A stretch of DNA of 64,000 nt from Candidatus Vogelbacteria bacterium (GTDB lineage: Bacteria > Patescibacteriota > Minisyncoccia > Phycocordibacterales > XYD1-FULL-46-19): assembly GCA_021414225.1 (NCBI GenBank), contig JAIOOX010000004.1, positions 2,206 through 66,205 on the forward strand, read 5' to 3'. The position numbers and the translations under genes are program-made. This document shows, piece after piece, positions 17,267 through 64,000 of the stretch. Below the pieces are notes generated by a model. That model saw only the letters and a list, made by a program, of their open reading frames with translations. It was not told where the DNA came from and did no database searches. Positions within the stretch are counted from its first letter, which is position 1. Each line of letters starts with the position of its first letter.

Positions 17267-17355
17267 GGAGGGGTGGCTGAGTGGCCGAAAGCGCCTCACT
17301 GCTAACGAGGTAGGGGCTTTAAAACCTCTCGCGGGTTCGAATCCCGCCCCCTCCG
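17267..17355 (+). tRNA. tRNA-Ser(GCU), class II with long variable arm
   Basis: Acceptor stem GGAGGGG/CCCCTCC. Anticodon loop CUGCUAA. T-arm GCGGGTTCGAATCCCGC. Confidence 0.8.
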
Positions 17356-17395
17356 CAAAATAAAGAGCTCAAAGCAGGGCTTTGTAGCGACTATA

Positions 17396-17465
17396 TTTTT
17401 GCGAGAGTGGGGCGGGATTCGAACGCCGGAGCGGGCGAAGCCCAAACTCAGCAGAGTTTGTTCGC
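17396..17465 (-). other. inverted, degenerate copy of the tRNA-Ser 3' half followed by a stem-loop; not a foldable tRNA
   Basis: The minus strand reads ggcgttcgaatcccgccccactctcgcaaaaa, compared with gggttcgaatcccgccccctccgcaaaa for the tRNA 3' end. An adjacent 31-nt hairpin lies at 17435-17465. Confidence 0.4.
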
Positions 17466-17539
17466 GAGGCGATGCCTAGACCAAAATTTAGTGACGACCA
17501 AGTTTTGAGTCGAAGGAGAATCCTGCAAAAAAGAAGACT

Positions 17540-17629
17540 GGAGAGATGGATGAGTGGCTTAAATCAACGGTTTACTAAACCGTCGAACCTTAATTGGTTC
17601 CGTGGGTTCGAATCCCACTCTCTCCGCCA
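17540..17629 (+). tRNA. class II tRNA (long variable arm, CCA encoded); anticodon loop UUACUAA gives apparent anticodon ACU
   Basis: Acceptor stem GGAGAGA/TCTCTCC. T-arm GTGGGTTCGAATCCCAC. A 5-bp variable-arm stem. The genomic 3' end is CCA. Confidence 0.75.
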
Positions 17630-31918: not shown

Positions 31919-32251
31919 CTACTTCTTCGGCTTCTTCTTTTTCGGCTTCGGCTTCGGCTCGGCCGGAGCAACCTCGAGCAAGCAGCCCGAAATGTTGCTC
32001 AATCGGCTAGCCGTCTGGCCACAACCGTCTTCACAGATAAGTTGAAGTTCAACTTTCTGCGGGTGGTTGTTGGCCCGGATCTCGTTGGCGCCGACTAGCC
32101 GTGCACCTGTGACCAGGTACTGCCGACCCTTCTTTCCAACACAACAGTCGCTTTTGAGAGCGTCTGCTGTGAACTGAACCTTCTGGTTCGGTCGGAGAAG
32201 GACCACACCCTTACTTGTCCCCGCCTTCGCTGCTGCCATGACAATACCCAT
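31919..32251 (-). CDS. hypothetical Cys-containing protein with KPKPKKKKPKK tail, on a G+C-richer insert
   Basis: 110-aa ORF. Its base composition is clearly above that of its neighbours. Confidence 0.4.
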   Translation of the reverse strand: MGIVMAAAKAGTSKGVVLLRPNQKVQFTADALKSDCCVGKKGRQYLVTGARLVGANEIRANNHPQKVELQLICEDGCGQTASRLSNISGCLLEVAPAEPKPKPKKKKPKK

Positions 32252-32541
32252 CCTTCTAAAACATTTTGATTACTACCCAATGTAGCAACCCTAGATCCAA
32301 AAATAACTTTACACCTTATTATTATATAGTGTCAAGTAAAAACCTGTTTTTGGCCATATTTAGTAACGCCAAAATAAAAACCACCTTAAGACTTCCATAA
32401 CTTCTCGTACCAGTCCCAAGTAAAATGCATGATCAAAAAAGCCGGAATATAAATCGGTATTAGAATAATAGCCAGAGCAAATTTCGCTTTGGAATCTAAG
32501 TTTTTCACTGCGTTATGAATCTTACCAAAATCTGTTAGAAT

Positions 32542-32994
32542 TTGTCTATGTCTACTTTTGTGCACAATAAAAAAGTGAATTTCAATTATGAAATTACCGA
32601 CACTTTTGATGCTGGTATCGAACTACTGGGTCCCGAGGTTAAATCACTGCGACTAGGTCAGGCTTCTCTTGATGGGGCGCATGTCATTATTCGAGGGGAA
32701 GAAGCCTATTTAGTCGGCGCCACTATCGCCCCTTACCAGCCCGGCAACAAGGACTCCAAGGTTGATCCGACTCGAACCCGCCGACTTCTGTTGTCCAAAA
32801 AAGATATTGCCGAATTGATCGGAACCGGGGCTCGCAAAGGATTGACATTAGTGCCGATTTCAGTGTATAATAAAGGACGTTACATCAAGCTTTCGATCGG
32901 TGTCGCTCGCGGTAAGAAGAAATTTGATAAACGCGAAACACTGAAGAAAAAGGAAGCTACTAGAGATGTAGCCAGATCGTTGAAAGATTTTTAA
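32542..32994 (+). CDS. smpB: SsrA-binding protein
   Basis: 150 aa with a SmpB-like sequence. tmRNA follows immediately. Confidence 0.9.
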   Translation: MSMSTFVHNKKVNFNYEITDTFDAGIELLGPEVKSLRLGQASLDGAHVIIRGEEAYLVGATIAPYQPGNKDSKVDPTRTRRLLLSKKDIAELIGTGARKGLTLVPISVYNKGRYIKLSIGVARGKKKFDKRETLKKKEATRDVARSLKDF

Positions 32995-32997
32995 TAT

Positions 32998-33377
32998 GGG
33001 GATGCCAGTTTAGACGAGAGATTACTGGTGTTCGCGCCAAACGGAGGAGGTTACCTAGCTCCTAAAAAACGGTAACAACCTATGAGTGCAAAAACTGCCT
33101 CAAAAGGAAGTGTGGCTTCGCCATACTCTCCTCTAGCTTTCGCTTTAGCCTAAGCTAGTGCTTGCCCAGATTGTGAGTGGCTGTCTGGACCAAGTATAAT
33201 AGTCGCCAATCTTCGGACTCAAAGTTGTCTTGCTTTGAATCCAAAAACTTAAAGACTCGGCCGGGTGATGCTTTTGTGGCTTTTTGATATCACCTGCTTA
33301 AAAAATTGAAAGGCACTATGTTTGGTAGAAACGCTCATCATACCCTCCCGGACGTGGGTTCAATCCCGCCATCTCCA
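32998..33377 (+). ncRNA. ssrA: tmRNA (SsrA)
   Basis: The 5' GGGGATG pairs with the 3' CATCTCC. The 3' tRNA-like end GGACGTGGGTTCAATCCCGCCATCTCCA resembles the canonical tmRNA terminus. An internal tag ORF ...PLAFALA* stops at 33151-33153. Confidence 0.8.
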
Positions 33378-33665
33378 CAAAAATAAGGAACGCAGTGACT
33401 ATATTTTTGTAGGATGCCGCCAGTTGTGCCTAACTGGCGGCGCCACAAATACTATGGGTATTTTCCCGTCAAAGTTTTTTATTTGGCGGCACCACAAAAA
33501 ATAACCAGTGACTTTTTTGTATAATACCGCTAACCACTTACAGTTATCAGCACCACAAGCAATTACCACCTTCATGGGTGGTTTTGTTTTTTGGGGTTGA
33601 CTTCCCCATCTTAACCAGGCATAAATAATACTGGATCAAGTTGCTAACCATAAGGGAATCGTTCC

Positions 33666-34037
33666 ATGCCAAAACGACGTGTCCGTTTTTTGTTTGCGAT
33701 CTGTGGTTGGAGTGTGAACATTATCACCATTCCACCGAGTGGTGTTGTACTGGAACATTTGCACTGGATCAAGGAGGAAGTCTATATCGGTCTGTCGGGA
33801 GTTGGTAAACTGACAATTGACGGCCGGACTACCAAATTCAGTCTCGGCTCGATTCACCACATCCCCACCGGGACCTCTCACGGGTTAACAACCGAAAAAG
33901 GTGTCAGGTTCCTAACCCTCGAGGGCCCAACTTTACCCAATGACACCATTTTTGGACTAAATGGACCCTACCCACCCCGCCCGCCAAGAAGCCCCGCTTC
34001 TGGTCGGCGGGGTTTTCTTTTTAATCTTAATCATTGA
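33666..34037 (+). CDS. cupin-domain protein, on a G+C-rich insert
   Basis: Cupin motifs EHLHWIKEEVYIGLSG and GSIHHIPTGTSHGL. Confidence 0.55.
   Translation: MPKRRVRFLFAICGWSVNIITIPPSGVVLEHLHWIKEEVYIGLSGVGKLTIDGRTTKFSLGSIHHIPTGTSHGLTTEKGVRFLTLEGPTLPNDTIFGLNGPYPPRPPRSPASGRRGFLFNLNH
33990..34023 (+). terminator. intrinsic terminator after the cupin gene
   Basis: gccccgcttctggtcggcggggttttcttttt. Confidence 0.6.
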
Positions 34038-34133
34038 CACAAATAGAAATTTATTGCAGTAATATGACCAGCATAACTAGGTGTTCTAGTTATTTTTGGA
34101 TATAGGTCTTCACAACATAGGAACCAAAGGGAG

Positions 34134-34646
34134 GTGAAAGAAATGGAAAAACATTTCAAGCCATGGCCCAACGCCACCACACAACTACTGTGGGAAATCT
34201 GTCTGGTGCACATCCAGGAGACTGATCCTTTGCCGCTCAACGGCCGGAAAATCCGGCGCCGGGCGGGGCAAATATTCAGCTGGATACGGAAGTTCGACGA
34301 CCAGACCAGTCTTCAAACCTTGATCCTGATCCTGGTTGAAGGACTGAAGGTGGTAGTCGATCGGTGCACCAACGAGGCTCTCAACCTCGATTACCGCCCA
34401 GCCCCCAAACCGATCCCCGAGTCGCTCCAGTCGATCATGCCTGATGAGAGGCTATGGGAAATTTTGTGGCTGATGATGGCTTACAAAATTACCAACACCC
34501 CTATCCTCTGGGGAGACGAAGGTATCAAGGTCATCGCCACCAACCTGACCAACCAACTCACCAGCAATGGTATGCCGGTGAACGAAGATCACACCATCAA
34601 CGTGATCCGAGAACTGTTGGGTCAAGTGGTGACCCAACCTCGCTAA
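34134..34646 (+). CDS. hypothetical protein, G+C-rich
   Basis: 170-aa ORF. A hairpin plus T-run terminator lies at 34751-34785. Confidence 0.4.
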   Translation: MKEMEKHFKPWPNATTQLLWEICLVHIQETDPLPLNGRKIRRRAGQIFSWIRKFDDQTSLQTLILILVEGLKVVVDRCTNEALNLDYRPAPKPIPESLQSIMPDERLWEILWLMMAYKITNTPILWGDEGIKVIATNLTNQLTSNGMPVNEDHTINVIRELLGQVVTQPR

Positions 34647-34889
34647 CATCCCAATCATGGGTGTCCCCTTGATTGGGGCCTAAACGGTAATTCGACCTCC
34701 CGGCTCACGCCGACTTGGTCGAGGATAAGAACGTTCCCTATGATTCACTGCCGGTCGAAGCGCAAGCGCTTCGGCCGGTTTTTCCTTTCCTTAAAAACTT
34801 GACCAAAAATAAATAGCATGTAATAGTATCGTCTGGAGATTCTGGGAAATAGTTCCTGGAATAACGTTTACCTAGAGAGGTTTTCGCAC

Positions 34890-35081
34890 ATGCATAGCAA
34901 CGGTATTGTCGGGGTTAAAGCTAACGGTTTCCAGGCGGGAGACCGGGTGACCCAAAAAGGTGGCGAGAGTGCCTTTGAGGTGCTTACCGCCGTAAGCAAA
35001 GAGGGTAACAAAGTTGCCCTCAAGTCGCTGACCGGCAGCCTCGCGTTCGTGGAGCTGGCCGAGAACTTGGTTCTCGCGTAA
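34890..35081 (+). CDS. small hypothetical protein
   Basis: 63 aa. Preceded by the sigma70-like promoter ttgacc-17-taatag and an AGAGAGG RBS. Followed directly by a terminator at 35101-35138. Confidence 0.4.
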   Translation: MHSNGIVGVKANGFQAGDRVTQKGGESAFEVLTAVSKEGNKVALKSLTGSLAFVELAENLVLA

Positions 35082-35100
35082 CCCAAAACGTTTTTATACA

Positions 35101-35138
35101 CCTCCCCGAGCCACCAGGCCCGGGGAGGATTCTTTTTT
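35101..35138 (+). terminator. intrinsic terminator
   Basis: cctccccgagccaccaggcccggggagg followed by ttctttttt. Confidence 0.6.
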
Positions 35139-35312
35139 ATAAAGAAGCCAAGGGTTTGACCCCGTAGTAGATTTTGGTATTGGTCATAGACCCACTCCGC
35201 CTGTCAGGACGGAGTGATAACAAAATTCACTACCGGGTTTGACTTTTCTCCCAATTTCCCTTACTATTGTTGGGTACAGCCGTCGAATAGACGGTATTAA
35301 TTTACAAGGTTT

Positions 35313-38902: not shown

Positions 38903-39667
38903 TTATAACGCTGTTAAAATAATCGGACCACTATCAGTCACCGCAATCGTGTGTTCAAAATGAGCACTGAGTGTTCCATCAGCTGATACAAAAGTATACT
39001 CATCGTCCAAGAGGTCAGTCTCTTTGGTGCCTAAGGTAATCATCGGCTCAATCGCTATAACCATTCCCGCTTTTAACTTCTCACCAGTACCAGCTTGGCC
39101 AAAATTGGGAATTTGTGGATCTTCATGAACTCCATAACCAACCCCATGGCCAGCTAAATCTTCAATAATTCCATAACCAAAAGGTTTAATATACTGCTCA
39201 ATTGCAAAGCCAATATCACCCACTGTTTTCCCCACCACCGCTTGAGCGATAGCTAGATCGAGGGCTTTTTTAGTTTGACTGATCAAATTTTGAACCTCCT
39301 CCGACACTTCACCAACAGCCAAAGTAATCGCCGAATCCGTAAATAACCCAGCGTGAACCAAACCTAGATCTAGAGTCACCACGTCTCCCTCTTTGATCTC
39401 ATATTGACTAGGAATACCATGAACGATCTCATCGTTCACCGATACACATAAAGCCGCTGGATAGGCCAATCTAGCCCCTTTGGGGCGATAATTGAGGAAG
39501 GCTGGACTGTCACCGTATTCTTTAATTAAACGCCTAGCTTCATCGTCCAAATCCCTAGTTTTGACCCCTGGTTTAACCTGAGTCGCTAAAGTAGTCAAAA
39601 TAGAGGCCAATCGCTTGCCTCCTTCTCGTAAAATCTGAATTTCTTCTTTGGTTTTTAGTTTAATCAT
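38903..39667 (-). CDS. map: methionine aminopeptidase type I
   Basis: Metal ligands in DVVTLDLG...HG...E...E context. 254 aa. Confidence 0.9.
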   Translation of the reverse strand: MIKLKTKEEIQILREGGKRLASILTTLATQVKPGVKTRDLDDEARRLIKEYGDSPAFLNYRPKGARLAYPAALCVSVNDEIVHGIPSQYEIKEGDVVTLDLGLVHAGLFTDSAITLAVGEVSEEVQNLISQTKKALDLAIAQAVVGKTVGDIGFAIEQYIKPFGYGIIEDLAGHGVGYGVHEDPQIPNFGQAGTGEKLKAGMVIAIEPMITLGTKETDLLDDEYTFVSADGTLSAHFEHTIAVTDSGPIILTAL

Positions 39668-40248
39668 AAATTAGCCAACAGTTCACTATGAATCTCTTCG
39701 ATAGTCTTGAGCCCATCAAGTTCTATAAACCTATGTTTATCATGATTACGATAAAATTCAATAGTTGGAGAAACGTCGTGGTCAAACCAATCCAATCGCT
39801 TCTCTATTTCATCAGAACTGCGATCGTCATCACGACCCCTAGCCAATAGACGCCTTTTAGCTTCCTCGCGAGTGATATTAAGGTGAACCACCACCACATT
39901 TTGCCGATCATAAAAATTGAGAGCTGAATCAAGGGCTTTGGCTTCAGCTAATGCCCGTGGAGTACCATCAAAGATTAGATGTTCAGTTCCAGTGAAAGAT
40001 TCAATCAACACATTAGCCCACATCCACACAGCCAAAAAATCTGGTTGACGGACACCAGTAGACATCACCGCTTTAGATAATTGACTAGAGTGTGAATCAC
40101 CTTTAATAAAATTCCTAAATCCATCACCGGTTTCTACTAGAAAAATTGGTGACTGATCTTGGGTGGTTAGGTAATCTTTCAGTAAACCAGCCTGGGTCCC
40201 CTTACCACAACCAGACCGCCCAATAAAAATAAAAGTTTTTAAATCCAT
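39664..40248 (-). CDS. adk: adenylate kinase
   Basis: P-loop GRSGCGKGTQA. The ATG at 40248 is preferred. It lies 2 nt after the stop of the upstream pilin gene. Confidence 0.8.
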   Translation of the reverse strand: MDLKTFIFIGRSGCGKGTQAGLLKDYLTTQDQSPIFLVETGDGFRNFIKGDSHSSQLSKAVMSTGVRQPDFLAVWMWANVLIESFTGTEHLIFDGTPRALAEAKALDSALNFYDRQNVVVVHLNITREEAKRRLLARGRDDDRSSDEIEKRLDWFDHDVSPTIEFYRNHDKHRFIELDGLKTIEEIHSELLANL

Positions 40249-40255
40249 ATAATTA

Positions 40256-40723
40256 CTAATTTCCAAGGGGAACAACATTGGATGTACAAATCCTATCATA
40301 ACCAGTATTTTGATCATCAATAACTCCAGTCCCTCGAAAATCATTATACCAACACTTTCCAGGCTGCGACTCTAAAGGAAACTCAAAAATAAAACAACTA
40401 GGATCTGAACTGACAGATCCAGGACAAATTGGAGTATAAATACCCTCAATAGCCGGAGTGCCAGCTGGGGGCGGTTTTAAATATTGATTGATTAAATCAT
40501 CATCACCGTCAGTCCCTTTAACAGGATCCCCCGGATAATAACTCCTATCGTTAAAAAATAATTCAAAACCTCTTCTATATTCGGCTGCATATTGAATACG
40601 AGCACTGTCACGCGCTTTGGCACGTGCACCACCAAGAGAAGTAAGTACCACCGAACTCAAGATGCTAATAATCGCAATGACTACCAATAGTTCTATTAAT
40701 GTAAAACCTACTTGTTGTTTCAT
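40256..40723 (-). CDS. type IV pilin
   Basis: MKQQVGFTLIELLVVIAIISILSSVVL. Confidence 0.75.
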   Translation of the reverse strand: MKQQVGFTLIELLVVIAIISILSSVVLTSLGGARAKARDSARIQYAAEYRRGFELFFNDRSYYPGDPVKGTDGDDDLINQYLKPPPAGTPAIEGIYTPICPGSVSSDPSCFIFEFPLESQPGKCWYNDFRGTGVIDDQNTGYDRICTSNVVPLGN

Positions 40724-40730
40724 AAAAAAA

Positions 40731-41204
40731 TTAATTATTAAGAACAGTACAGCCTAAAACTTCTTCTCCGTTTTCATCAACTCTTTCCCCCTTACCTCTA
40801 GTATCATCATACCAACAATAACCTGGTTTAGAGTTTAACTCAATCTCAGCGATATAGCACTGACCAGTCGGCTCACAGTCGTGGGTAGTAAATGCCATTT
40901 TAAAACGATTATCATCGAAAGCGCCTCCATTATTCAAATTACAGTTCCGAGCAAATCTACCCAACTCAGCCAAAGCGGCTGCCAAAGTTCCAGCCCCAGG
41001 GACATCATTACCAATATAACGATTATTGTCCAACATAAAAGCTTGATTACAAACACTAAACTGTCTCAAGACATCAACATTTCTAGAATCAAGGGCTTTC
41101 AATTTGGCCTGATTAAGGCTAGCTAATACAATACTAGATAATAAGGCAATAATGGCTATTACCACCAACAATTCAATAAGGGTAAAACCAGAACGTTTTA
41201 CCAT
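40731..41204 (-). CDS. type IV pilin
   Basis: MVKRSGFTLIELLVVIAIIALLSSIVL. Confidence 0.75.
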   Translation of the reverse strand: MVKRSGFTLIELLVVIAIIALLSSIVLASLNQAKLKALDSRNVDVLRQFSVCNQAFMLDNNRYIGNDVPGAGTLAAALAELGRFARNCNLNNGGAFDDNRFKMAFTTHDCEPTGQCYIAEIELNSKPGYCWYDDTRGKGERVDENGEEVLGCTVLNN

Positions 41205-41419: not shown

Positions 41420-42691
41420 CTAGTATTCTCGCATGGTCACCTGGGCTTCGATTTTCTTCATTAAGTCCAGAGCAACCGAGACCACAATCAATAAGCTAGT
41501 TCCCCCGATCGCAAACGAGGCAATACCAGTTAAACCTTGGATAATCAGCGGCAGCATAGCCACAATGCCCAAGAACAAAGCCCCGATCAAAGTCAGTCTA
41601 GTTAAGATTTTGGAAATGTATTCGGCTGTCATTTGGCCAGGTCTAATACCAGGAATAAATGCCCCACTCTTTTGAAGATTGGTTGAGACCATTACTGGAT
41701 CAAAAGTAACAGCTGAATAGAAGTAAGTAAAAACAAAGACGAATAAGAAATACAATCCGCCGTAGATCCATTGGTTGTTGAGAACGGACAACATAACCTC
41801 TGCAATTGATTGTAATGTGGCATTAGAAGCTTGAGCTAAGAAGTTAGCAATCATCTGAGGAAACAGCAAGATAGATAAAGCGAAGATGATTGGCATCACA
41901 CCAGCATTGTTAACTCGGATTGGCAGATAGGTAGAAACCCCACCATAAACCTTGGAACCTCTCACTTGTTTAGCATAAGTCACTGGAATAGGTCGTTCTG
42001 CTTCGGTTACAACAACAATAGCGGCAATCACCACCACCGCTCCGATCAAAAAAGCAATATAAAGAGGAATTTGCGAAATATCAAAAGTAATCCACAGCTG
42101 ACTAATATTGGAAGGTAGACTAGCGACAATACCAGCAAAAATGATTAGCGACATACCATTTCCAATCCCATACTCAGTGATCAACTCCCCAAGCCACATC
42201 AGTAAAATAGAACCAGCCGCGACCACTACAACGTTAAGCAAACGGTCACTTAAGGTCACGCTAGATAAAATCCCCTGGCGCTCTAAAATCAACAACAAAC
42301 TAAAAGCTTGAAGGGCAGCTAGAGGTAAGGTCAACAAACGGCTGTATTGGGCCAACTTGCGGCGACCAGCTTCTCCATCTTCATGAAACAACTCTTTAAT
42401 AGTCGGAAACACCAGTGTCAACAACTGCATAATAATCGAAGCGGTAATAAAAGGACCGACACCGAGCATTAAAATAGATAAATTAGACAAACCACCACCA
42501 GAAAAGATGTTTAGCAGACCAAAAAATTGGTTGTCAGAAAAAAATTGAGTCAGAGCTGCATGATCAACGCCTGGAATAGGAATAGAAGTTCCTAAACGAA
42601 ACAAAGCTAAAATCAACAAGACAAAAAGAAGACGAAGTCTTAAGTTGCCGTCTTGGAGTACGAGATTTATTTTCTGAGACACCGTTGACAT
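41420..42691 (-). CDS. secY: preprotein translocase subunit SecY
   Basis: 423 aa, 10 TM segments, follows rplO. Confidence 0.9.
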   Translation of the reverse strand: MSTVSQKINLVLQDGNLRLRLLFVLLILALFRLGTSIPIPGVDHAALTQFFSDNQFFGLLNIFSGGGLSNLSILMLGVGPFITASIIMQLLTLVFPTIKELFHEDGEAGRRKLAQYSRLLTLPLAALQAFSLLLILERQGILSSVTLSDRLLNVVVVAAGSILLMWLGELITEYGIGNGMSLIIFAGIVASLPSNISQLWITFDISQIPLYIAFLIGAVVVIAAIVVVTEAERPIPVTYAKQVRGSKVYGGVSTYLPIRVNNAGVMPIIFALSILLFPQMIANFLAQASNATLQSIAEVMLSVLNNQWIYGGLYFLFVFVFTYFYSAVTFDPVMVSTNLQKSGAFIPGIRPGQMTAEYISKILTRLTLIGALFLGIVAMLPLIIQGLTGIASFAIGGTSLLIVVSVALDLMKKIEAQVTMREY

Positions 42692-45023: not shown

Positions 45024-45209
45024 TTACCAGGATGATTTCTTAATACCCGGGATTTGACCTTCGTTGGCAAATTCACGGAAGCAGATACGGCAAAGGCCGA
45101 AGTCACGCATAAAAGCTCGCTTACGTCCACAACGAAAACAACGTCGGACAACGCGAGATTGGAACTTAGGTTTCTTTTGTGATCTTGCGATCACCGAAGT
45201 TTTAGCCAT
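45024..45209 (-). CDS. rpsZ: 30S ribosomal protein S14 type Z (zinc-binding)
   Basis: 61 aa with CxxC...CxxC. The internal ATG at 45209 is preferred. Confidence 0.85.
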
Positions 45210-45296
45210 AAATGCTCTACTTTTCGGGTAATTATTATTAAAACAGGCCCTCGTTAGGCCGGCTTTTATCCTATCAAGAAAGGCCTTCGGTGTCAA

Positions 45297-47054
45297 TTAT
45301 TCACTAATCTGGTATTGCCAAAAACGGTGATATATTTCCTCATTTTTAATAAGCTCTTGATGATTTCCGTCTTCTACTATTTTACCCTTATCCATCACAA
45401 TAATCCGGTCCATTTTCTGGATAGTACTGAGTCGGTGGGCAATAACAATCGTGGTCCGACCCTTAATTAAGGAATCGAAGGCCTCTTTGATAAATCCTTC
45501 ACTTTCGGTATCAAGTGACGAAGTTGCTTCATCGAGGATAATAATTGGCGCTCGTTTAAGAATTGCCCGAGCGATGGCCACACGCTGACGCTCACCGCCG
45601 GAAAGCTTCACTCCCCGCTCACCGACCAAGGTATCATACCCTTGCGGCAATTGACTGATAAAATCATGAGCATAGGCCTTTTTAGCAGCTTCAATCACAT
45701 CTTCCATGGTCGCTTCTTCATTACCATATTTGATATTCTCCAATAGGGACCGATGAAACAAAGACGGATCTTGTGGCACATAGGCAATATTCTGACGAAG
45801 ATCATCTTGGGTAATAGAGTCAATACGTTGACCATCAATAGCAATCTCACCCGACTGTACGTCAACGAATCGCAAAATAAGTTTAACCAAGGTCGATTTA
45901 CCACAACCAGATGATCCTACTAGGCCCACTTTCTGGCCAGCAGGAATTGTGAGATTAAAATCAGTAAATACTGGATTGGTTGGATGATAATAAAAATTAA
46001 CCTTATTAAATTCAATAGCTCCAGCCTTAATAGCTGGTGTTTGGGAGGTAGTTAAATCTTTAACTTCAATTGGTCGTTCAATAATGTCGATCATTTCGCT
46101 AGCGTCAGCCAGGGCTTCGGTAAACTTACTAATAGAGCGTCCCAGGCCCCACAAATGAGCAAAAATATTAGCAAAGACTAGTTGAGCCAAGACCAGTGTG
46201 CCTACACTAATTGAACCCTTAGACCACAAGGAGAGAGCGAGGTACATACCAATAATTTCAAGTAACGAAAAAGCTAAGCTCTGGAGACCAATCTGGATGA
46301 CAAACACCTTCTCTGATCTCAGCCTTGCTATCAACTCTTCTGTGGTTACTCGTTTAAAACCATCAATCTCTTTATCTCGTCCACTAAAAACTTTGATAGT
46401 CAAAATATTAGTAATAGCATCTGCTAATGATGCTGTTACTTTTGAATCTGCTTCTGATCGTTTCAGATCATACGGATTACGGTAAATAACAAAGGCGATC
46501 GTAATCCCAACGTAGACAACAAACCAGATAACAAAAAAAATGGTAAGCCAGATATTCTGAAAACTAAAGACAATAAATGTAGCAATAATACTTAGTACCG
46601 CCGGTCCAATACCATAAAATATCTCATTCAGAACAACCTCAAACGATCGTGTTAATCGTTTAGCTTTAGCCACCAAAGCGCCTGAGAAATTATCACTAAA
46701 AAATTGATATGAGTGCTCAGTTAGTTTACTAAAAGTTCGATCATGTATATCTTTTAGTATTGGGTCTTGGCTTTTGTACAAACAAAAATCAGAGATACGA
46801 AAAAATACACTATACAGAATATACAAAAAAGTCATCATCCCAGCTAAGGCCAGAAGTTCAGGACTAATAAACCCTAATGCGTGATGACTAGTCAGATAAT
46901 CAACTATTTTTTTATACTGAATCGGAACAATAGTATCAGCCAAAATAAGACCGGCCCAAAAAAATAGAGCAGCAGAAAAAAATAGTGCTTGATACGGAGC
47001 AACACTAGGAGAGGTATATTTAATAAAACGTTTTAATTGCTTAACCAAATTCAT
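45297..47054 (-). CDS. ABC exporter, fused permease/ATPase (MsbA-like)
   Basis: Six N-terminal TM helices. Walker A GSSGCGKST. Signature LSGGERQRVAIARA. Walker B ILDEATS. Confidence 0.8.
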   Translation of the reverse strand: MNLVKQLKRFIKYTSPSVAPYQALFFSAALFFWAGLILADTIVPIQYKKIVDYLTSHHALGFISPELLALAGMMTFLYILYSVFFRISDFCLYKSQDPILKDIHDRTFSKLTEHSYQFFSDNFSGALVAKAKRLTRSFEVVLNEIFYGIGPAVLSIIATFIVFSFQNIWLTIFFVIWFVVYVGITIAFVIYRNPYDLKRSEADSKVTASLADAITNILTIKVFSGRDKEIDGFKRVTTEELIARLRSEKVFVIQIGLQSLAFSLLEIIGMYLALSLWSKGSISVGTLVLAQLVFANIFAHLWGLGRSISKFTEALADASEMIDIIERPIEVKDLTTSQTPAIKAGAIEFNKVNFYYHPTNPVFTDFNLTIPAGQKVGLVGSSGCGKSTLVKLILRFVDVQSGEIAIDGQRIDSITQDDLRQNIAYVPQDPSLFHRSLLENIKYGNEEATMEDVIEAAKKAYAHDFISQLPQGYDTLVGERGVKLSGGERQRVAIARAILKRAPIIILDEATSSLDTESEGFIKEAFDSLIKGRTTIVIAHRLSTIQKMDRIIVMDKGKIVEDGNHQELIKNEEIYHRFWQYQISE

Positions 47055-50945: not shown

Positions 50946-51089
50946 ATTTACAAAAAGAAAAGCTCACCTGGAGCTTCGCAATATCTTATCAAATAATGCT
51001 TAAATGTCAAACTCTGGACTGCTAGCAGACTCAATAAAAGTCCCCCGCCGGCCAGTAGGCCAGCGGGGGCTATAAATTAAACCAGTTAA

Positions 51090-51446
51090 TCAGATCCTCC
51101 TGGCCAAGCCTGGGCAGTGAGAACACAGCATGATCCAAGCCTGGGGTGCCTCCTGTGGGCCACTGGTAAGCACCTGGTTAATCAGGGCTAGTTTAGTGTT
51201 CACCAGAGGTAAGGCTTTTGGATCAGACACCTCTCCAAGGTGGCCCTTCAATTCTTCCAACCGACCCTTAAAACCACTACAAACCTCCAGCTGAAGTAGA
51301 TAGGTGTTCTGGAGAGCCCCTTGGGGGGTATTACTGACCGGCATAACCTTGCCACACCGATCACAAGCTACCCAGAATTCTCCCGTGTCAGAATTTTTCA
51401 TCTCCTTCAAATCCGGAGAAGAACAACTTGGACAAGATAATTTCAT
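51090..51446 (-). CDS. zinc-ribbon (CPSC...CDRC) hypothetical protein on a G+C-rich insert inside the S10 operon
   Basis: MKLSCPSCSS...VACDRCG. The start at 51446 is preferred over 51521. It is flanked by hairpins at 51040-51075 and 51535-51570. Confidence 0.4.
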   Translation of the reverse strand: MKLSCPSCSSPDLKEMKNSDTGEFWVACDRCGKVMPVSNTPQGALQNTYLLQLEVCSGFKGRLEELKGHLGEVSDPKALPLVNTKLALINQVLTSGPQEAPQAWIMLCSHCPGLARRI

Positions 51447-51582
51447 ACTCGAAACTCCATATTGATTGTTGTGCCCTTTAGAGGCCCTCTGTCTTTCCAC
51501 CACCATAACTACCGCAAACATATTTGACTGTCAAACAAAAAAATCGAGCAACTGCTCGATTTTTTTGTTAAGTTTTTTTAAA

Positions 51583-61542: not shown

Positions 61543-61845
61543 ATGTCGCCAGCAGATAGCTTCAATGACCAGTTTCACCGAATCTTGGTGAAACTTCCCA
61601 ATCCCCATCGAGTATTGGTCGTAATGTTCCTGGCCCGTAGTCAGGTCAATTTTACCATTGAAAATGAATGTCGCCTGATTGTTGATGTTTTCATCAACTT
61701 TTTAGTTGAAAACTACCCAACAAACCAGGACTTGGTCCAGACCTTACAAGAAGCCTGGCTCAAGTGGTGCAACAAACCTATTAACCCTAACGAAATAGTA
61801 TTCCGACACACACCGGAACTCTGGGAGACTGACCATGATGAATAA
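61543..61845 (+). CDS. hypothetical protein, translationally coupled to the DnaA-like gene
   Basis: 100 aa. Promoter-like TTGACG-17-TACATA and an RBS upstream. Its stop overlaps the start of the next ORF. Confidence 0.4.
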   Translation: MSPADSFNDQFHRILVKLPNPHRVLVVMFLARSQVNFTIENECRLIVDVFINFLVENYPTNQDLVQTLQEAWLKWCNKPINPNEIVFRHTPELWETDHDE

Positions 61846-63265
61846 TCATAAAGCCATGGTCAGCCTAGGACCATCGCCAACCAGCGACTTAGTCGATAAA
61901 GCTATCGCTGATGTAGAAAAGTCTAAGCAGGCCAACCTCAACCTCGACCGTCACATCAAGCAAGGTTTGGGCAATCTAGGAACCCAGTCCAACACCTTGG
62001 CTTGGATAGACGTTCGGGGAGTAATTGTTTTCGACAACGAGACAGGTATTCTGACAATCCCGGTTAAAAATGACTTCTGTGCTAGATGGTGTCGGGAACA
62101 CCGGGAGGTCCAAGGGGACATTACCCTTTGCCTGCCGGATGGATTCCAGTTCAAGAAAATGGAATTTGTGGAAACTGGAATACCAGACACTCCCGAACCA
62201 AACACCTCTTTAGAAGCGAGGTCAGAACCAGAACCAGGCGATCCGATCCAAGAAGTTTTTGACTTTGGCGCCAACAAGAGTACAGTCAAATTTAACCCGG
62301 GAAAGGAAAATTTAAAAACCTACGATTTAGTTAAGTGTATTCTAGACCGAGAAACCGACTTCCCCCTCATGGTCTTATGGGGTGAGAACGGCACCGGTAA
62401 AGAAACTCTAGCTAATCAGGTCTATCGCCGAGGCACCAGGTTGCTCGCCGGCCTGGCCCAAAAAAGAAAGACTCCCCAAACTGCGATAGTATCAGCCATT
62501 GGTTTCCAGGCCGAGTTTGTGGCTTGTTTTAGAGATGCAAAGGACGGCAAAAAAGCCCTCCAAGTCCTCCAAGACAGGCTACTAGTTCGACTATTGGTTA
62601 TTACTGACTTGGACACGTTCTGTGGTCGAAACAACCAAGGAACAGCTGATGCCCTAAGCCAAGCTGTAACCAAGGTAATAGACTCTGGCGGTCGAGTTCT
62701 AGTAACCATGTCGGTACCCGAAGGTGGTACCTACGAGGAAACTTTAGGAAAAATCAACCCCACGATTGTCCAACTTTTGGGAACCAAGGGCTTCGCAGAC
62801 TTCCTGATCAAACCGGCCAGTTTGGAAACCAGGGTTGAGATCCTGTCTCAGCTCCGGGGGCCAAACATGGAAACATTAAGCGAAGATTCCAGAAAAATTT
62901 TGGCTACCCAGTGGCCCACTGTAGCCAGTATGCTTACTCAAGGGAAAAAGTTCCTCCATGGAATCGTCGATGAAGAACCAAGAAAGGAGACACCATCCCC
63001 CCCGAAGATTATCGAGGCGATTGAATCCTGGAGCCAGCTACCTAAGGGTTCCCTGGTCGGACGAAGCAAAACCAGGCGAGTAGTCCAAGGTCGGCACCTG
63101 GCCATCTACCTGGTCGCGGAGCTGCACCCAAAAATGACAGCGGCCACGATTGGAAAGTTGTTTGGCAACAGAGACCACACAACCGTACTCTATGCCAAAC
63201 AACAAGTCTCTATGAACATCGATCTTCAGGATTCTCTGGAAGCAGCCAGAAAGTTGTTTACGTAA
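61835..63265 (+). CDS. divergent DnaA-like protein (AAA+ domain with degenerate Walker A plus DnaA domain IV)
   Basis: GENGTGKE in place of GxxGxGKT. Walker B LLVITDLD. Box VII-like FADFLIKPASLETRVEIL. C-terminal HLAIYLVAELHPKMTAATIGKLFGNRDHTTVLYA matches the DnaA DNA-binding domain. Confidence 0.6.
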   Translation: MMNNHKAMVSLGPSPTSDLVDKAIADVEKSKQANLNLDRHIKQGLGNLGTQSNTLAWIDVRGVIVFDNETGILTIPVKNDFCARWCREHREVQGDITLCLPDGFQFKKMEFVETGIPDTPEPNTSLEARSEPEPGDPIQEVFDFGANKSTVKFNPGKENLKTYDLVKCILDRETDFPLMVLWGENGTGKETLANQVYRRGTRLLAGLAQKRKTPQTAIVSAIGFQAEFVACFRDAKDGKKALQVLQDRLLVRLLVITDLDTFCGRNNQGTADALSQAVTKVIDSGGRVLVTMSVPEGGTYEETLGKINPTIVQLLGTKGFADFLIKPASLETRVEILSQLRGPNMETLSEDSRKILATQWPTVASMLTQGKKFLHGIVDEEPRKETPSPPKIIEAIESWSQLPKGSLVGRSKTRRVVQGRHLAIYLVAELHPKMTAATIGKLFGNRDHTTVLYAKQQVSMNIDLQDSLEAARKLFT

Positions 63266-63320
63266 GCTCTCTTATTATCACCCCGCGGGACCCAAAGGCA
63301 CATCGGTGCTTGAGGGTCCC

Positions 63321-64000
63321 TTAACTTTGGGGAAATATCTTAAATGTAATTCTACCATCTTCAGCGGTTGATAAGATTTTAATATTTTTGTTTTCTAACT
63401 TCTCAACCACTTCTGGGTGGGGATGCCCATAGCGATTATTTTTACCAGCGGAAATCACTGCATAAACAGGATCAACAACTTCCAAAAAACTTTGACCAGT
63501 CGAGGTACGTGAGCCATGGTGTCCAACTTTAAGAACCGTCGACTGAATCTGACTACCATCTTTCTGAGTTAAATAATTTTCCACCTTCAGTGGCGAATCG
63601 CCGTTTAAATAAAAAGAAGTGCCTTTGTATTCCAATCGGCCGACAATGGAAGCGTCGTTCGTTTCCATTTTGGTCGTGTCTTGATCAGGATACAAAACAG
63701 TAAAAGTCACATCTTTGTCTAATATTACTTTCATCCCCCGGCGAGCCAATATTTGGGGCACCTGATTAGTAATAAGCTCAGATTCTAATCGTTTATAAAT
63801 TTGAGTGTCCGCCGAAACTCCCGACTCTAATAGAGCACCTATTTGGAATCGATCTAAAACAAAATATAAACCGCCAATATGATCCGCGTCCGGGTGTGTA
63901 GCGACCACTAGGTCAATAAACCGATCGGACCAGGGTATGACTTGACCCAACTCCGATAAAACTACTTTTCCAGCACCACCATCAATCAACATTTGATTAC
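63321..64000 (-). CDS. comEC: ComEC/Rec2 competence channel, C-terminal metallo-beta-lactamase domain (partial; the gene continues past the window end)
   Basis: ATHPDADHIGGL...VLKVGHHGSRTS...AVISAGKNNRYGHPHPEV. Confidence 0.75.
   Translation of the reverse strand, partial: NQMLIDGGAGKVVLSELGQVIPWSDRFIDLVVATHPDADHIGGLYFVLDRFQIGALLESGVSADTQIYKRLESELITNQVPQILARRGMKVILDKDVTFTVLYPDQDTTKMETNDASIVGRLEYKGTSFYLNGDSPLKVENYLTQKDGSQIQSTVLKVGHHGSRTSTGQSFLEVVDPVYAVISAGKNNRYGHPHPEVVEKLENKNIKILSTAEDGRITFKIFPQS

Follow-up and report, generated by a model that had tools for sequence, protein, structure and literature searches.

A predicted subdivision of the S10 ribosomal-protein operon in a clade of the candidate phyla radiation, with a Lar-like zinc-ribbon gene at the rplB-rpsS junction

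Introduction

Few gene arrangements in bacteria are as conserved as the S10 operon, whose genes serve as standard markers for phylogeny and binning in the candidate phyla radiation (CPR). In E. coli, the operon is regulated by attenuation at a leader hairpin under the control of ribosomal protein L4, and chromosomal hotspots or variable islets flanked by core genes are familiar from studies of defence islands and horizontal gene transfer. Here we describe the junction between rplB and rpsS in a 64,000-nt stretch of DNA from a Candidatus Vogelbacteria genome (the window), in which the genes for ribosomal proteins L2 and S19 are separated by 637 bp containing a gene for a 118-residue zinc-ribbon protein. 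Comparison with related genomes suggests that the S10 operon is divided at this point throughout a Paceibacteria clade of the CPR, that this division is older than the zinc-ribbon gene, and that the junction serves as a hotspot for unrelated accessory genes.

A published study of how genes invade the junctions of conserved gene arrays provides a close evolutionary model: a few genes invade the junction first, and relaxed selection then permits complete separation, with 65% of events falling between operons, which are left intact. An rplB/rpsS split in CPR was not described in any paper returned by our literature search.

Anatomy of the rplB-rpsS junction

The gap (50946-51582) lies between rplB, which closes the upstream half of the split operon, and rpsS, the first gene of a downstream unit with the order rpsS-rplV-rpsC-rplP-rpmC-rpsQ-rplN-rplX-rplE, all on the minus strand (Table 1). 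Its length bears out the approximately 640 bp given in an initial annotation of the window, which was made from the sequence alone and which read the locus as a G+C-rich insertion between the two genes. The zinc-ribbon gene is the only long open reading frame (ORF) within it. Read in the direction of transcription, the gap has a modular anatomy: a terminator after rplB; a cassette of promoter, Shine-Dalgarno sequence, gene and terminator; a spacer; and a promoter, hairpin and U-rich tract leading into rpsS.

Both of the hairpins that had been noted initially as bracketing the insert are present, and each has what is expected of an intrinsic terminator, i.e. a GC-containing stem-loop, a U-run and conservation through compensatory changes, such that both are predicted to act as such. 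The hairpin behind rplB is a perfect 17-nt inverted repeat (a stem of 16-17 bp) with A-run and T-run flanks (-20.3 kcal/mol, z -5.6), and its pairing is kept in relatives by compensatory changes (TCGAGC/GCTCGA, CCGAGC/GCTCGG and CGAGGC/GCCTCG). In the hairpin behind the zinc-ribbon gene, a GC-rich stem of 12 bp leads into UUUUAUU on the operon strand (-32.6 kcal/mol, z -6.3); this hairpin is conserved in the loci L082, L088 and L090 with changes on both arms of the stem, and other hairpins stand at its position in L084 and L085. The promoter of rpsS and the leader hairpin behind it are almost invariant among close lineages. The claim of the initial annotation that the terminator would uncouple rplB from rpsS-rplV-rpsC thus gains support from the compensatory changes in the stem and from the conserved promoter that rpsS appears to possess. 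The promoter-like site of the zinc-ribbon gene is less canonical: its -35 box directly adjoins the U-run of the rplB terminator, TTTGTTTGACA is unchanged in six lineages and the alignment shows a conserved -10 region (GT.TTTTAT/AGTTAT), but the -10 is weak and the site was missed by a simple promoter scan.

Table 1. Features of the rplB-rpsS junction (window coordinates)
Feature	Position	Strand	Basis
rplB, ribosomal protein L2, 279 aa	51583-52422	-	ORF list; Pfam Ribosomal_L2_N/C on identical Logan contig; NCBI MCE9628974.1
Predicted rplB intrinsic terminator, AACAAAAAAATCGAGCA..TGCTCGATTTTTTTGTT, symmetric and hence bidirectional	51534-51569	-	fold energy, covariation
Promoter-like site of the zinc-ribbon gene: -35 TTGACA 51534-51529, 18-nt spacer, -10 AGTTAT 51510-51505	51505-51534	-	alignment
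Shine-Dalgarno GGAG, 8 nt before the zinc-ribbon ATG	51455-51458	-	sequence; GGAG or GGGG box at the equivalent place in all homologous loci
Zinc-ribbon protein gene, 118 aa, Lar-like ribbon and novel helical C-terminal domain	51090-51446	-	NCBI MCE9628973.1
Predicted zinc-ribbon gene intrinsic terminator, stem 51042-51069, U-run to 51033	51033-51069	-	fold energy, comparison
Variable spacer, 20 bp, actual insertion point	51013-51032	-	alignments with island-bearing strains
Predicted rpsS promoter, TTGACA-16-TGATAAGAT, TG-extended TAAGAT	50983-51010	-	promoter scan, 10/12 matches, TG present
rpsS leader: hairpin GAAGCTC CAGGT GAGCTTT 50959-50977, then U-rich tract to ATG	50946-50977	-	sequence, comparison
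rpsS, ribosomal protein S19, 114 aa	50601-50945	-	ORF list; NCBI MCE9628972.1

The gap had also been singled out for a distinctly higher G+C content (GC), which holds for the ORF (50.1%) and only mildly for the gap as a whole (45.5% vs 41.4% for the window, 44.2% for rplB and 42.9% for rpsS). A GC of 50.1% is reached by just 2.5% of the 357-bp segments across the 64 kb, and the GC at third codon positions (GC3) of the ORF is ~0.52 vs a window mean of 0.358 (sd 0.085; z ~ +1.9); the 3' end of rplB itself rises to 55% over 200 nt. The compositional signal of the ORF is genuine yet moderate.

The unusual composition, and nothing more, would speak for an assembly chimera or for a spurious ORF in a non-coding gap, to which together we assign a negligible probability. 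The S19 and L2 proteins of the window (MCE9628972.1 and MCE9628974.1) are those of a Candidatus Vogelbacteria metagenome-assembled genome, where they lie on a contig of 130.6 kb; over 8.8 kb the window is reproduced with 100% identity by the Logan assembly of SRR15633504, and the order rplB-ORF-rpsS is repeated in contigs from four sources (JGI, ENA, NCBI and Logan), from more than ten samples and from independent assemblies. A chimera, which had been named at the outset as a finding that would overturn the insertion, is therefore excluded. A spurious ORF is countered by a ratio of nonsynonymous to synonymous divergence (dN/dS) of 0.15-0.31, four invariant cysteines and a confident AlphaFold2 model obtained from only six sequences, all taken up below.

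On inspection, the gap contains neither a transposase or integrase gene nor terminal inverted repeats or a target-site duplication. The sole direct repeat flanking the ORF cassette is GTTTGACA, i.e. the two -35 boxes, which lie 524 bp apart. A search of the gap and the whole window against Rfam returned only sub-threshold noise in the gap, where the Leu leader and NsiR1 look-alikes are the terminators themselves.

Division of the S10 operon across the clade

The comparison of the junction across relatives, proposed as a check by the initial annotation, covered 80 rplB loci from species-representative genomes, in which the distance from rplB to rpsS was measured. In the 59 loci outside the clade of the window, which include other CPR lineages such as Yanofsky-, Kerfeld-, Buchanan- and Uhrbacteria, the two genes range from overlapping to ~100 bp apart, most of them by less than 30 bp. 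The clade itself is represented by the 21 closest relatives (L2 identity 56-72%), which are labelled Paceibacterota, Kaiser-/Zambryskiibacteria or 'Patescibacteria group'. Two of their contigs end at rplB, leaving 19 informative loci: 13 of the 21 show a gap of 93-1104 bp, and in a further six the 0.9-3 kb of sequence available past rplB contains no rpsS.

The putative regulatory elements of the window recur with this gap. In most loci of the clade rplB is directly followed by a hairpin and its U-run, and 14 of 18 loci (12 distinct sequences) have TTGACN-16/17-TAnnnT upstream of rpsS, often with TTTG before the -10. In all 12 lineages this is followed by the same leader layout: a hairpin of 4-8 bp begins 3-9 nt past the -10 and a T-rich tail then extends to the start codon. 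The stems vary by lineage (AAGCTC, AAGCCC, TGAGCC, TTGCCG, AACGCC, CCCGC and others), their pairing being retained through two-sided changes at positions 2-6. In one relative, L002, the gap of 132 bp contains the terminator, the promoter and the leader with no cargo, an arrangement that looks like the basal state. Because terminator and rpsS promoter exist without cargo in L002 and recur across the clade, the insert did not break the operon, in disagreement with the initial annotation. The comparison thus points to a split of the S10 operon that is both older and wider than the zinc-ribbon insert, and which would have made the site permissive.

The leader of rpsS has no Shine-Dalgarno sequence, and shows no similarity in sequence or in Rfam to the S10 leader of E. 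coli. Taken alone, the leader hairpin of the window is unexceptional (z -1.2), its support being comparative. It may be an attenuator, by analogy with the E. coli S10 leader; alternatively, it may be a 5' stem-loop that stabilizes the mRNA, with the U-rich tract standing in for the Shine-Dalgarno sequence as a translation enhancer. A third possibility, that it insulates rpsS by terminating read-through transcripts only, was rejected because in most lineages transcripts from the predicted start sites would contain the whole hairpin. A design like that of rpsS is also seen in the window before the infC-rpmI-rplT operon (35237-35312, plus strand), where TTGACT-17-TACTAT is followed by ACAGCCGTC GAATA GACGGT and an AU-rich tract, and where infC has an apparent non-ATG start codon. 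The recurrence of this promoter-plus-hairpin layout before infC favours a generic role for the rpsS leader hairpin.

The zinc-ribbon gene and its family

The product of the gene is annotated by NCBI as a hypothetical protein in a 143-residue form. This form is probably over-extended, with the start at the ATG at 51446, because all homologues start at the methionine equivalent to that of MKLSC. Relatives are few: a word-indexed protein search matched nothing beyond the cluster of the query itself, an exhaustive HMMER search, run over 1.84 billion representatives, recovered three full-length relatives (P0002-P0004, with 48, 36 and 34% identity) and a later profile search added P0012 and P0013, giving a family of six 90%-identity clusters among ~15 billion proteins. 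Scans of JGI metagenome contigs, using the family profile and, separately, the invariant rpsS promoter-leader pattern, gave zero matches, and a scan of IMG/VR with the family profile found no relative.

Between lineages, pairs that are not saturated show a dN/dS of 0.17-0.22, and the range of 0.15-0.31 quoted above was obtained among strains whose ribosomal genes differ by a proportion of synonymous differences (pS) of 0.07-0.13. The ORF is thus a real gene under purifying selection. Twelve positions are invariant (C5, C8, C28, C31, L13, P36, L51, Q52, E65, L70, V92 and C108). Of the three cysteine motifs in the initial description of the ORF as a ~118-residue protein with CPSC...CDRC...C..C, the first two are therefore invariant, but the third, CSHC, is not conserved: C108 alone is invariant in it, C111 being replaced by Tyr or His in the other clusters of the family and, among four strain-level loci that were compared, by Tyr in all but L095, which retains Cys. 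The AlphaFold2 model, built from only six sequences, has a predicted local distance difference test (pLDDT) score of 92.3 and a predicted template modelling (pTM) score of 0.82, and predicts strands at residues 13-17 and 24-28 and helices at 41-49, 53-56, 59-71, 79-95 and 101-110. The isoelectric point (pI) of family members is 5.3-8.3, i.e. near neutral, unlike that of basic ribosomal proteins.

History of the gene at this site

Every homologue on a readable contig lies directly after rplB, directly before rpsS, or both. The L2 and S19 proteins on either side share 89-99% identity with those of the window (nucleotide identity 80-90%, synonymous divergence, dS, 0.5-1.2), and the ORF products are 28-48% identical between divergent lineages and 69-77% among the closest three. 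The ORF has a nonsynonymous rate ~15-50 times as high as its ribosomal neighbours. At the DNA level, homology to L085 ends at 51515 on the rplB side and restarts at 51011 on the rpsS side; therefore, the conserved elements are the terminator of rplB, the -35 box of the ORF and the promoter and leader of rpsS, to the exclusion of the body of the cassette. We infer that the gene has been resident here since before the six known lineages diverged.

The composition of the ORF is non-native throughout the family, with a GC3 of 0.44-0.55 in every member vs 0.30-0.44 in the flanking ribosomal genes. Its excess over the flanks stays at 0.1-0.2 in all six lineages despite a residence corresponding to dS > 0.6. 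The initial annotation had held that its reading would fall if the insert were universally conserved in the lineage with native composition: the ORF is indeed conserved at the site in a narrow lineage, but its composition is foreign in all members.

The same composition, together with the possession of its own promoter and terminator, the near-orphan status of the family and the phage-type character of its N-terminal domain, could suggest that a recent horizontal insertion landed in an intact S10 operon and broke it. We nevertheless consider such an event very unlikely. The site harbours homologues in six lineages with flanks diverged to a dS of 0.5-1.2, which contradicts the recent date implied by the initial annotation; the split is present both without cargo in L002 and across the clade; there is no integrase, terminal repeat or target duplication beyond the -35 boxes; and the divergence of the ORF fits vertical descent at a dN/dS (omega) of ~0.2.

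A different source of this divergence would be repeated replacement of alleles by homologous recombination through the ribosomal flanks, instead of vertical descent. At a comparable rplB dS of ~0.6-0.7, ORF identity is ~70% for L082 or L088 vs L089 but ~33% for L085 vs L082 or L088; the dS of the ORF is 1-3 times that of the flanks, even between strains; and the foreign GC3 in every member, the sharp breakpoints of DNA homology at 51515 and 51011 and the strain-level gain and loss of an island at the same spot (see below) are all in line with exchange. The dS estimates, however, come with large errors as the rplB fragments are short (114-145 codons), codon bias lowers the dS of ribosomal genes, and the members are too few for a tree test. 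As an omega of ~0.2 with saturated synonymous sites suffices to reach the observed identities, exchange of the cassette was rejected as a required explanation and is kept as a rival, which we judge somewhat unlikely. Vertical descent thus appears adequate to account for the divergence of the ORF, with some unevenness that leaves room for allele exchange.

Affinities of the zinc-ribbon protein

Matches to curated libraries are all sub-threshold and restricted to the ribbon. The Pfam family PF14354 (Lar_restr_allev) is matched at E 0.004 with 17.7 bits, below its cut-off of 28.6, and TIGR03655 (anti_R_Lar) with 14.9 bits, below its cut-off of 39.6, each of the two being matched at E < 0.1 by just two of the six members. 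The NCBIfam model ECs_2282_CxxC (NF047912) is matched by four of the six members (E 1.8e-4, sub-threshold), and Lar-like families of PHROG give weak matches (E 0.003-0.015). In a Foldseek search against predicted viral structures, the first 45-56 residues match many Lar-annotated phage proteins with a probability of 0.99-1.0 and a root-mean-square deviation of 1-2.8 A over 43-56 columns, with E-values of just 0.006-0.3; the same search against the PDB gave nothing at E < 0.2. A further link is to stand-alone zinc ribbons of 58-65 residues recovered in the exhaustive HMMER search, to which the N-terminal domain aligns in hhalign with 99% probability (E 2.9e-18, 54 columns). Two of these ribbons sit in small overlapping ORF arrays typical of phage early regions.

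For the C-terminal helical domain (residues 53-110), no relative was detectable in a profile search of the PDB or by Foldseek against the PDB and the viral models. The PDB profile search gave only spurious matches to C2H2 zinc-finger linkers (TGEKPY.C..CGK.F) and a weak match to ShdD, and PADLOC had no match for the family. The protein thus combines a Lar-like ribbon of phage type with a novel domain, and lies outside the Lar family as defined by curated models.

Two identities proposed by the initial annotation found no support, the closest relatives being the Lar-like phage zinc ribbons. An MqsA/YgiT antitoxin was rejected, as neither a helix-turn-helix (HTH) nor an MqsA match was found in Pfam or NCBIfam at E < 0.1 and the cassette comprises a single gene with no toxin partner. 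The TFIIB ribbon (PF08271) was rejected at 15.3 bits vs a cut-off of 29, and matches to Brf1/TFIIB ribbons in the PDB are confined to the ribbon at E >= 0.2.

Zinc ribbons are common among small ribosomal proteins. Together with the strictly conserved rplB/rpsS synteny of all members, the purifying selection and the consensus -35, this raises the alternative of a lineage-specific translation factor or other ribosome-associated protein, or a new small ribosomal protein. Several observations make such a role quite unlikely: the pI of 5.3-8.3 is not strongly basic, nonsynonymous changes accrue ~15-50 times faster than in the neighbouring ribosomal proteins, the family has only six clusters among ~15 billion proteins, in sister lineages the site is empty or taken up by unrelated genes, the gene is served by a predicted promoter of its own and insulated by the putative terminators from both ribosomal units, and Foldseek against the PDB found no structural match to a ribosomal protein at E < 1. 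The assignment as a ribosomal zinc-ribbon protein was accordingly dropped, and a role in genetic conflict appears more likely than a ribosomal one.

The junction as a hotspot of unrelated cargo

The gap is occupied by different genes in different members of the clade: MazE with PemK/MazF in L015; a DUF5674 protein in L012; a prokaryotic diacylglycerol kinase (DAGK, DgkA) in L021; an 85-residue ORF and a ParE toxin followed by an AI-2E transporter in L004; pyrF (orotidine monophosphate decarboxylase) and its neighbours in L007; a GT2 glycosyltransferase in L010; large secreted proteins in L003 and L022; and several orphan ORFs in L008, L009, L011 and L016-L019.

Variation extends to close strains. 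Six contigs share the L2 protein P0018, which falls in the 90%-identity cluster of the window's L2, and all four that reach past rplB have the zinc-ribbon gene at 90-94% amino-acid identity. The gene stands alone in L094/L097 and L095/L100; in L096/L098 (a 92.9-kb contig) and in L093/L099 it is accompanied by a 3.88-kb island of 54% GC, with its own TTGACA promoter and a GC-rich terminator. The flanks of L098 and L096 are 96-97% identical to the window, homology to L098, L096 and L093 breaks at 51033 and, for L098, it restarts at 51012; therefore, the island replaces the 20-bp spacer between the ORF terminator and the -35 of rpsS. It is absent from the window, L097 and L100, and the flanks across the compared strains are 96-98% identical. 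The site is thus active at the strain level.

The island (L098 2254-6130) encodes an HTH_3 protein of 237 residues, a GHKL ATPase of 573 residues with a HATPase_c_3 domain and a 367-residue protein of no assigned family. PADLOC had no match for these three genes, and the island may be an undescribed defence or conflict system.

The locus thus shows the properties of a hotspot, i.e. conserved flanks, unrelated content and presence/absence polymorphism among close strains. We place high confidence in the conclusions on the architecture of the junction and on its status as a hotspot.

An 85-nt element and other irregularities of the window

An element of ~85 nt with 22-bp terminal inverted repeats (CCCTGTAGTAGATTTTGGTATT ... 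AATACCAAAATTCACTACGGGG), an inner hairpin and TTTGAC on both sides was observed at four positions: window 35150-35245 (plus strand), L090 548-640, L089 957-1026 and L012 4570-4650. In the window it adjoins the -35 of the infC-rpmI-rplT promoter on the upstream side. In L089/L090 and the Kaiserbacteria genome L012 it directly precedes the rpsS promoter, in the former two directly downstream of the position of the 20-bp spacer. Its inner 34 bp have opposite orientations in the window and L090. As RNA it folds with -36.1 kcal/mol (z -5.2), and it has no match in Rfam. It looks like a miniature inverted-repeat transposable element that targets or regenerates -35 boxes, or else like a large palindromic operator.

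Further breaks are seen in the ribosomal cluster. In the spc operon a gene for a 585-residue ATP-binding cassette (ABC) transporter (ABC_membrane and ABC_tran; 45297-47054, minus strand) lies between rplE (47313-) and rpsN (45024-45296), and is 73% identical in nucleotides to its counterpart in L098, vs 96-97% for the adjacent ribosomal genes; this site may be a second variable or replaced locus in the ribosomal superoperon. Two type IV pilin-like genes (155 and 157 residues; prepilin N-terminus GFTLIELLVVIAII; 40256-41204, minus strand) are found between secY (41420-42691) and adk (39664-40344), and constitute another break in the canonical spc-operon order.

Elsewhere in the window, two patches are GC-rich (30726-35305 and 61835-63372), with ORFs of GC3 0.48-0.68 at 31919-32251 (minus strand) and at 33666-34037, 34134-34646 and 61835-63265 (plus strand). 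The first patch surrounds the transfer-messenger RNA (tmRNA) gene (32998-33380), a classical integration site, and an islet may be integrated there. ARAGORN assigns an ACT anticodon to a tRNA-Ser (17267-17629, plus strand) and a TAT anticodon to a tRNA-Ile (29053-29127, minus strand), both of which are unusual assignments: the latter may be a tRNA-Ile2 or a lysidine-independent AUA decoder, and the former an odd Ser isoacceptor.

Discussion

The observations can be brought together in a model with three parts: a split operon, an insulated cargo site and a long-resident Lar-like cassette. In this model the S10 operon of the clade would consist of two transcription units, the first ending with rplB at its terminator and the second starting with rpsS from its own sigma-70-type promoter and leader. 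The tolerance of the site for insertions would be explained by separate transcription of rplB and rpsS, such that DNA between the terminator and the rpsS promoter would leave the stoichiometry of ribosomal proteins undisturbed. Cargo would be kept because essential genes flank it, and could move between relatives by recombination through the highly conserved ribosomal flanks. The zinc-ribbon protein itself would derive from a phage Lar-like gene that was domesticated or has long been resident, and could act as a small binding protein in genetic conflict, e.g. by modulating restriction or defence. Taken as a whole we regard this model of a split operon with a resident cassette as probable; the conflict-related function is its most tentative element, and is offered as a doubtful possibility.

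Several points weigh against this model. Its promoters, terminators and two units are deduced from sequence, and the -10 of the ORF promoter is weak, so that read-through from rplB could add to the expression of the ORF. The GC3 of the ORF has stayed high, with no amelioration over dS > 0.6. The relationship to Lar is below every curated threshold, with Foldseek E-values of only 0.006-0.3, and the function of Lar is, to our knowledge, established for a single protein of the Rac prophage. Stable vertical retention at a fixed site with a dN/dS of ~0.2 is unexpected for a typical arms-race gene, and no restriction-modification or defence partner of the ORF was identified. Finally, inspection of the junction revealed no integrase, inverted terminal repeats or target duplication that would define how cargo enters.

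A bolder extension can be imagined, in which the junction is a 'cargo bay' across this CPR clade: conflict modules, among them the Lar-like protein as an anti-restriction type, toxin-antitoxin pairs and the GHKL-ATPase island, would be exchanged between lineages by homologous recombination with the ribosomal genes as homology arms, their entry might be seeded by the 85-nt element, which would insert at TTTGAC -35 boxes and regenerate them, and the zinc-ribbon genes would form one series of alleles within a new anti-defence family confined to these episymbionts. This we regard as speculative and on balance unlikely.

At the level of genome organization, these results indicate that even the S10 operon can be subdivided, and that the junction then tolerates accessory DNA in genomes of ~1 Mb or less. 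The variable inserts of 0.1-4 kb matter wherever rplB-rpsS synteny or marker concatenation is used in CPR, and the junction offers a defined locus for following the strain-level gene flux of uncultivated episymbionts in metagenomes. The covarying hairpin of the rpsS leader is a candidate regulatory or stabilizing element of a ribosomal-protein operon. What emerges is a previously undescribed comparative-genomic pattern in a conserved operon, and it reveals no new kind of mechanism.

Comparison with described systems

The rpsS leader resembles that of the E. coli S10 operon in that a short hairpin and a U-run separate the promoter of a ribosomal-protein unit from its first gene, and differs in that its hairpin begins at, or a few nt from, the predicted 5' end of the transcript. 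The progression from a junction invaded by few genes to complete separation, as published, has a likeness here in that some relatives have inserts of 0.1-1.1 kb and in others rpsS was not found within 0.9-3 kb; the difference is that the break lies inside the S10 operon and is common to a whole CPR clade, with a terminator and a promoter that appear to be newly fixed.

The zinc-ribbon protein shares with the Lar family (PF14354/TIGR03655; Lar of the Rac prophage) and the ECs_2282 ribbons an N-terminal region of ~50 residues with a C-x2-C...C-x2-C ribbon and a short helix, and has a similar sequence signature (NSDTGEFWV.CD.CG); the four-cysteine ribbon followed by a helix that defines the Lar fold is found in its predicted structure. 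Unlike Lar proteins, which are single domains of ~50-70 residues encoded by phages and prophages, it has double their length, including a further helical domain of ~65 residues without relatives, and its gene is chromosomal, at a fixed site between ribosomal genes. The predicted structure would thus represent a new architecture, a Lar-like ribbon with a novel helical domain, within a loosely defined superfamily of Lar-like zinc ribbons.

As in the known hotspots flanked by core genes, the flanks of the rplB-rpsS site are fixed and conserved, its content is unrelated between lineages and includes toxin-antitoxin genes, near-identical strains are polymorphic and most cargo is without an integrase. 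Unlike those hotspots, it lies inside what is a single, near-universal operon in other bacteria, in very small CPR genomes, and each of its cargoes is a compact module of promoter, gene and terminator.

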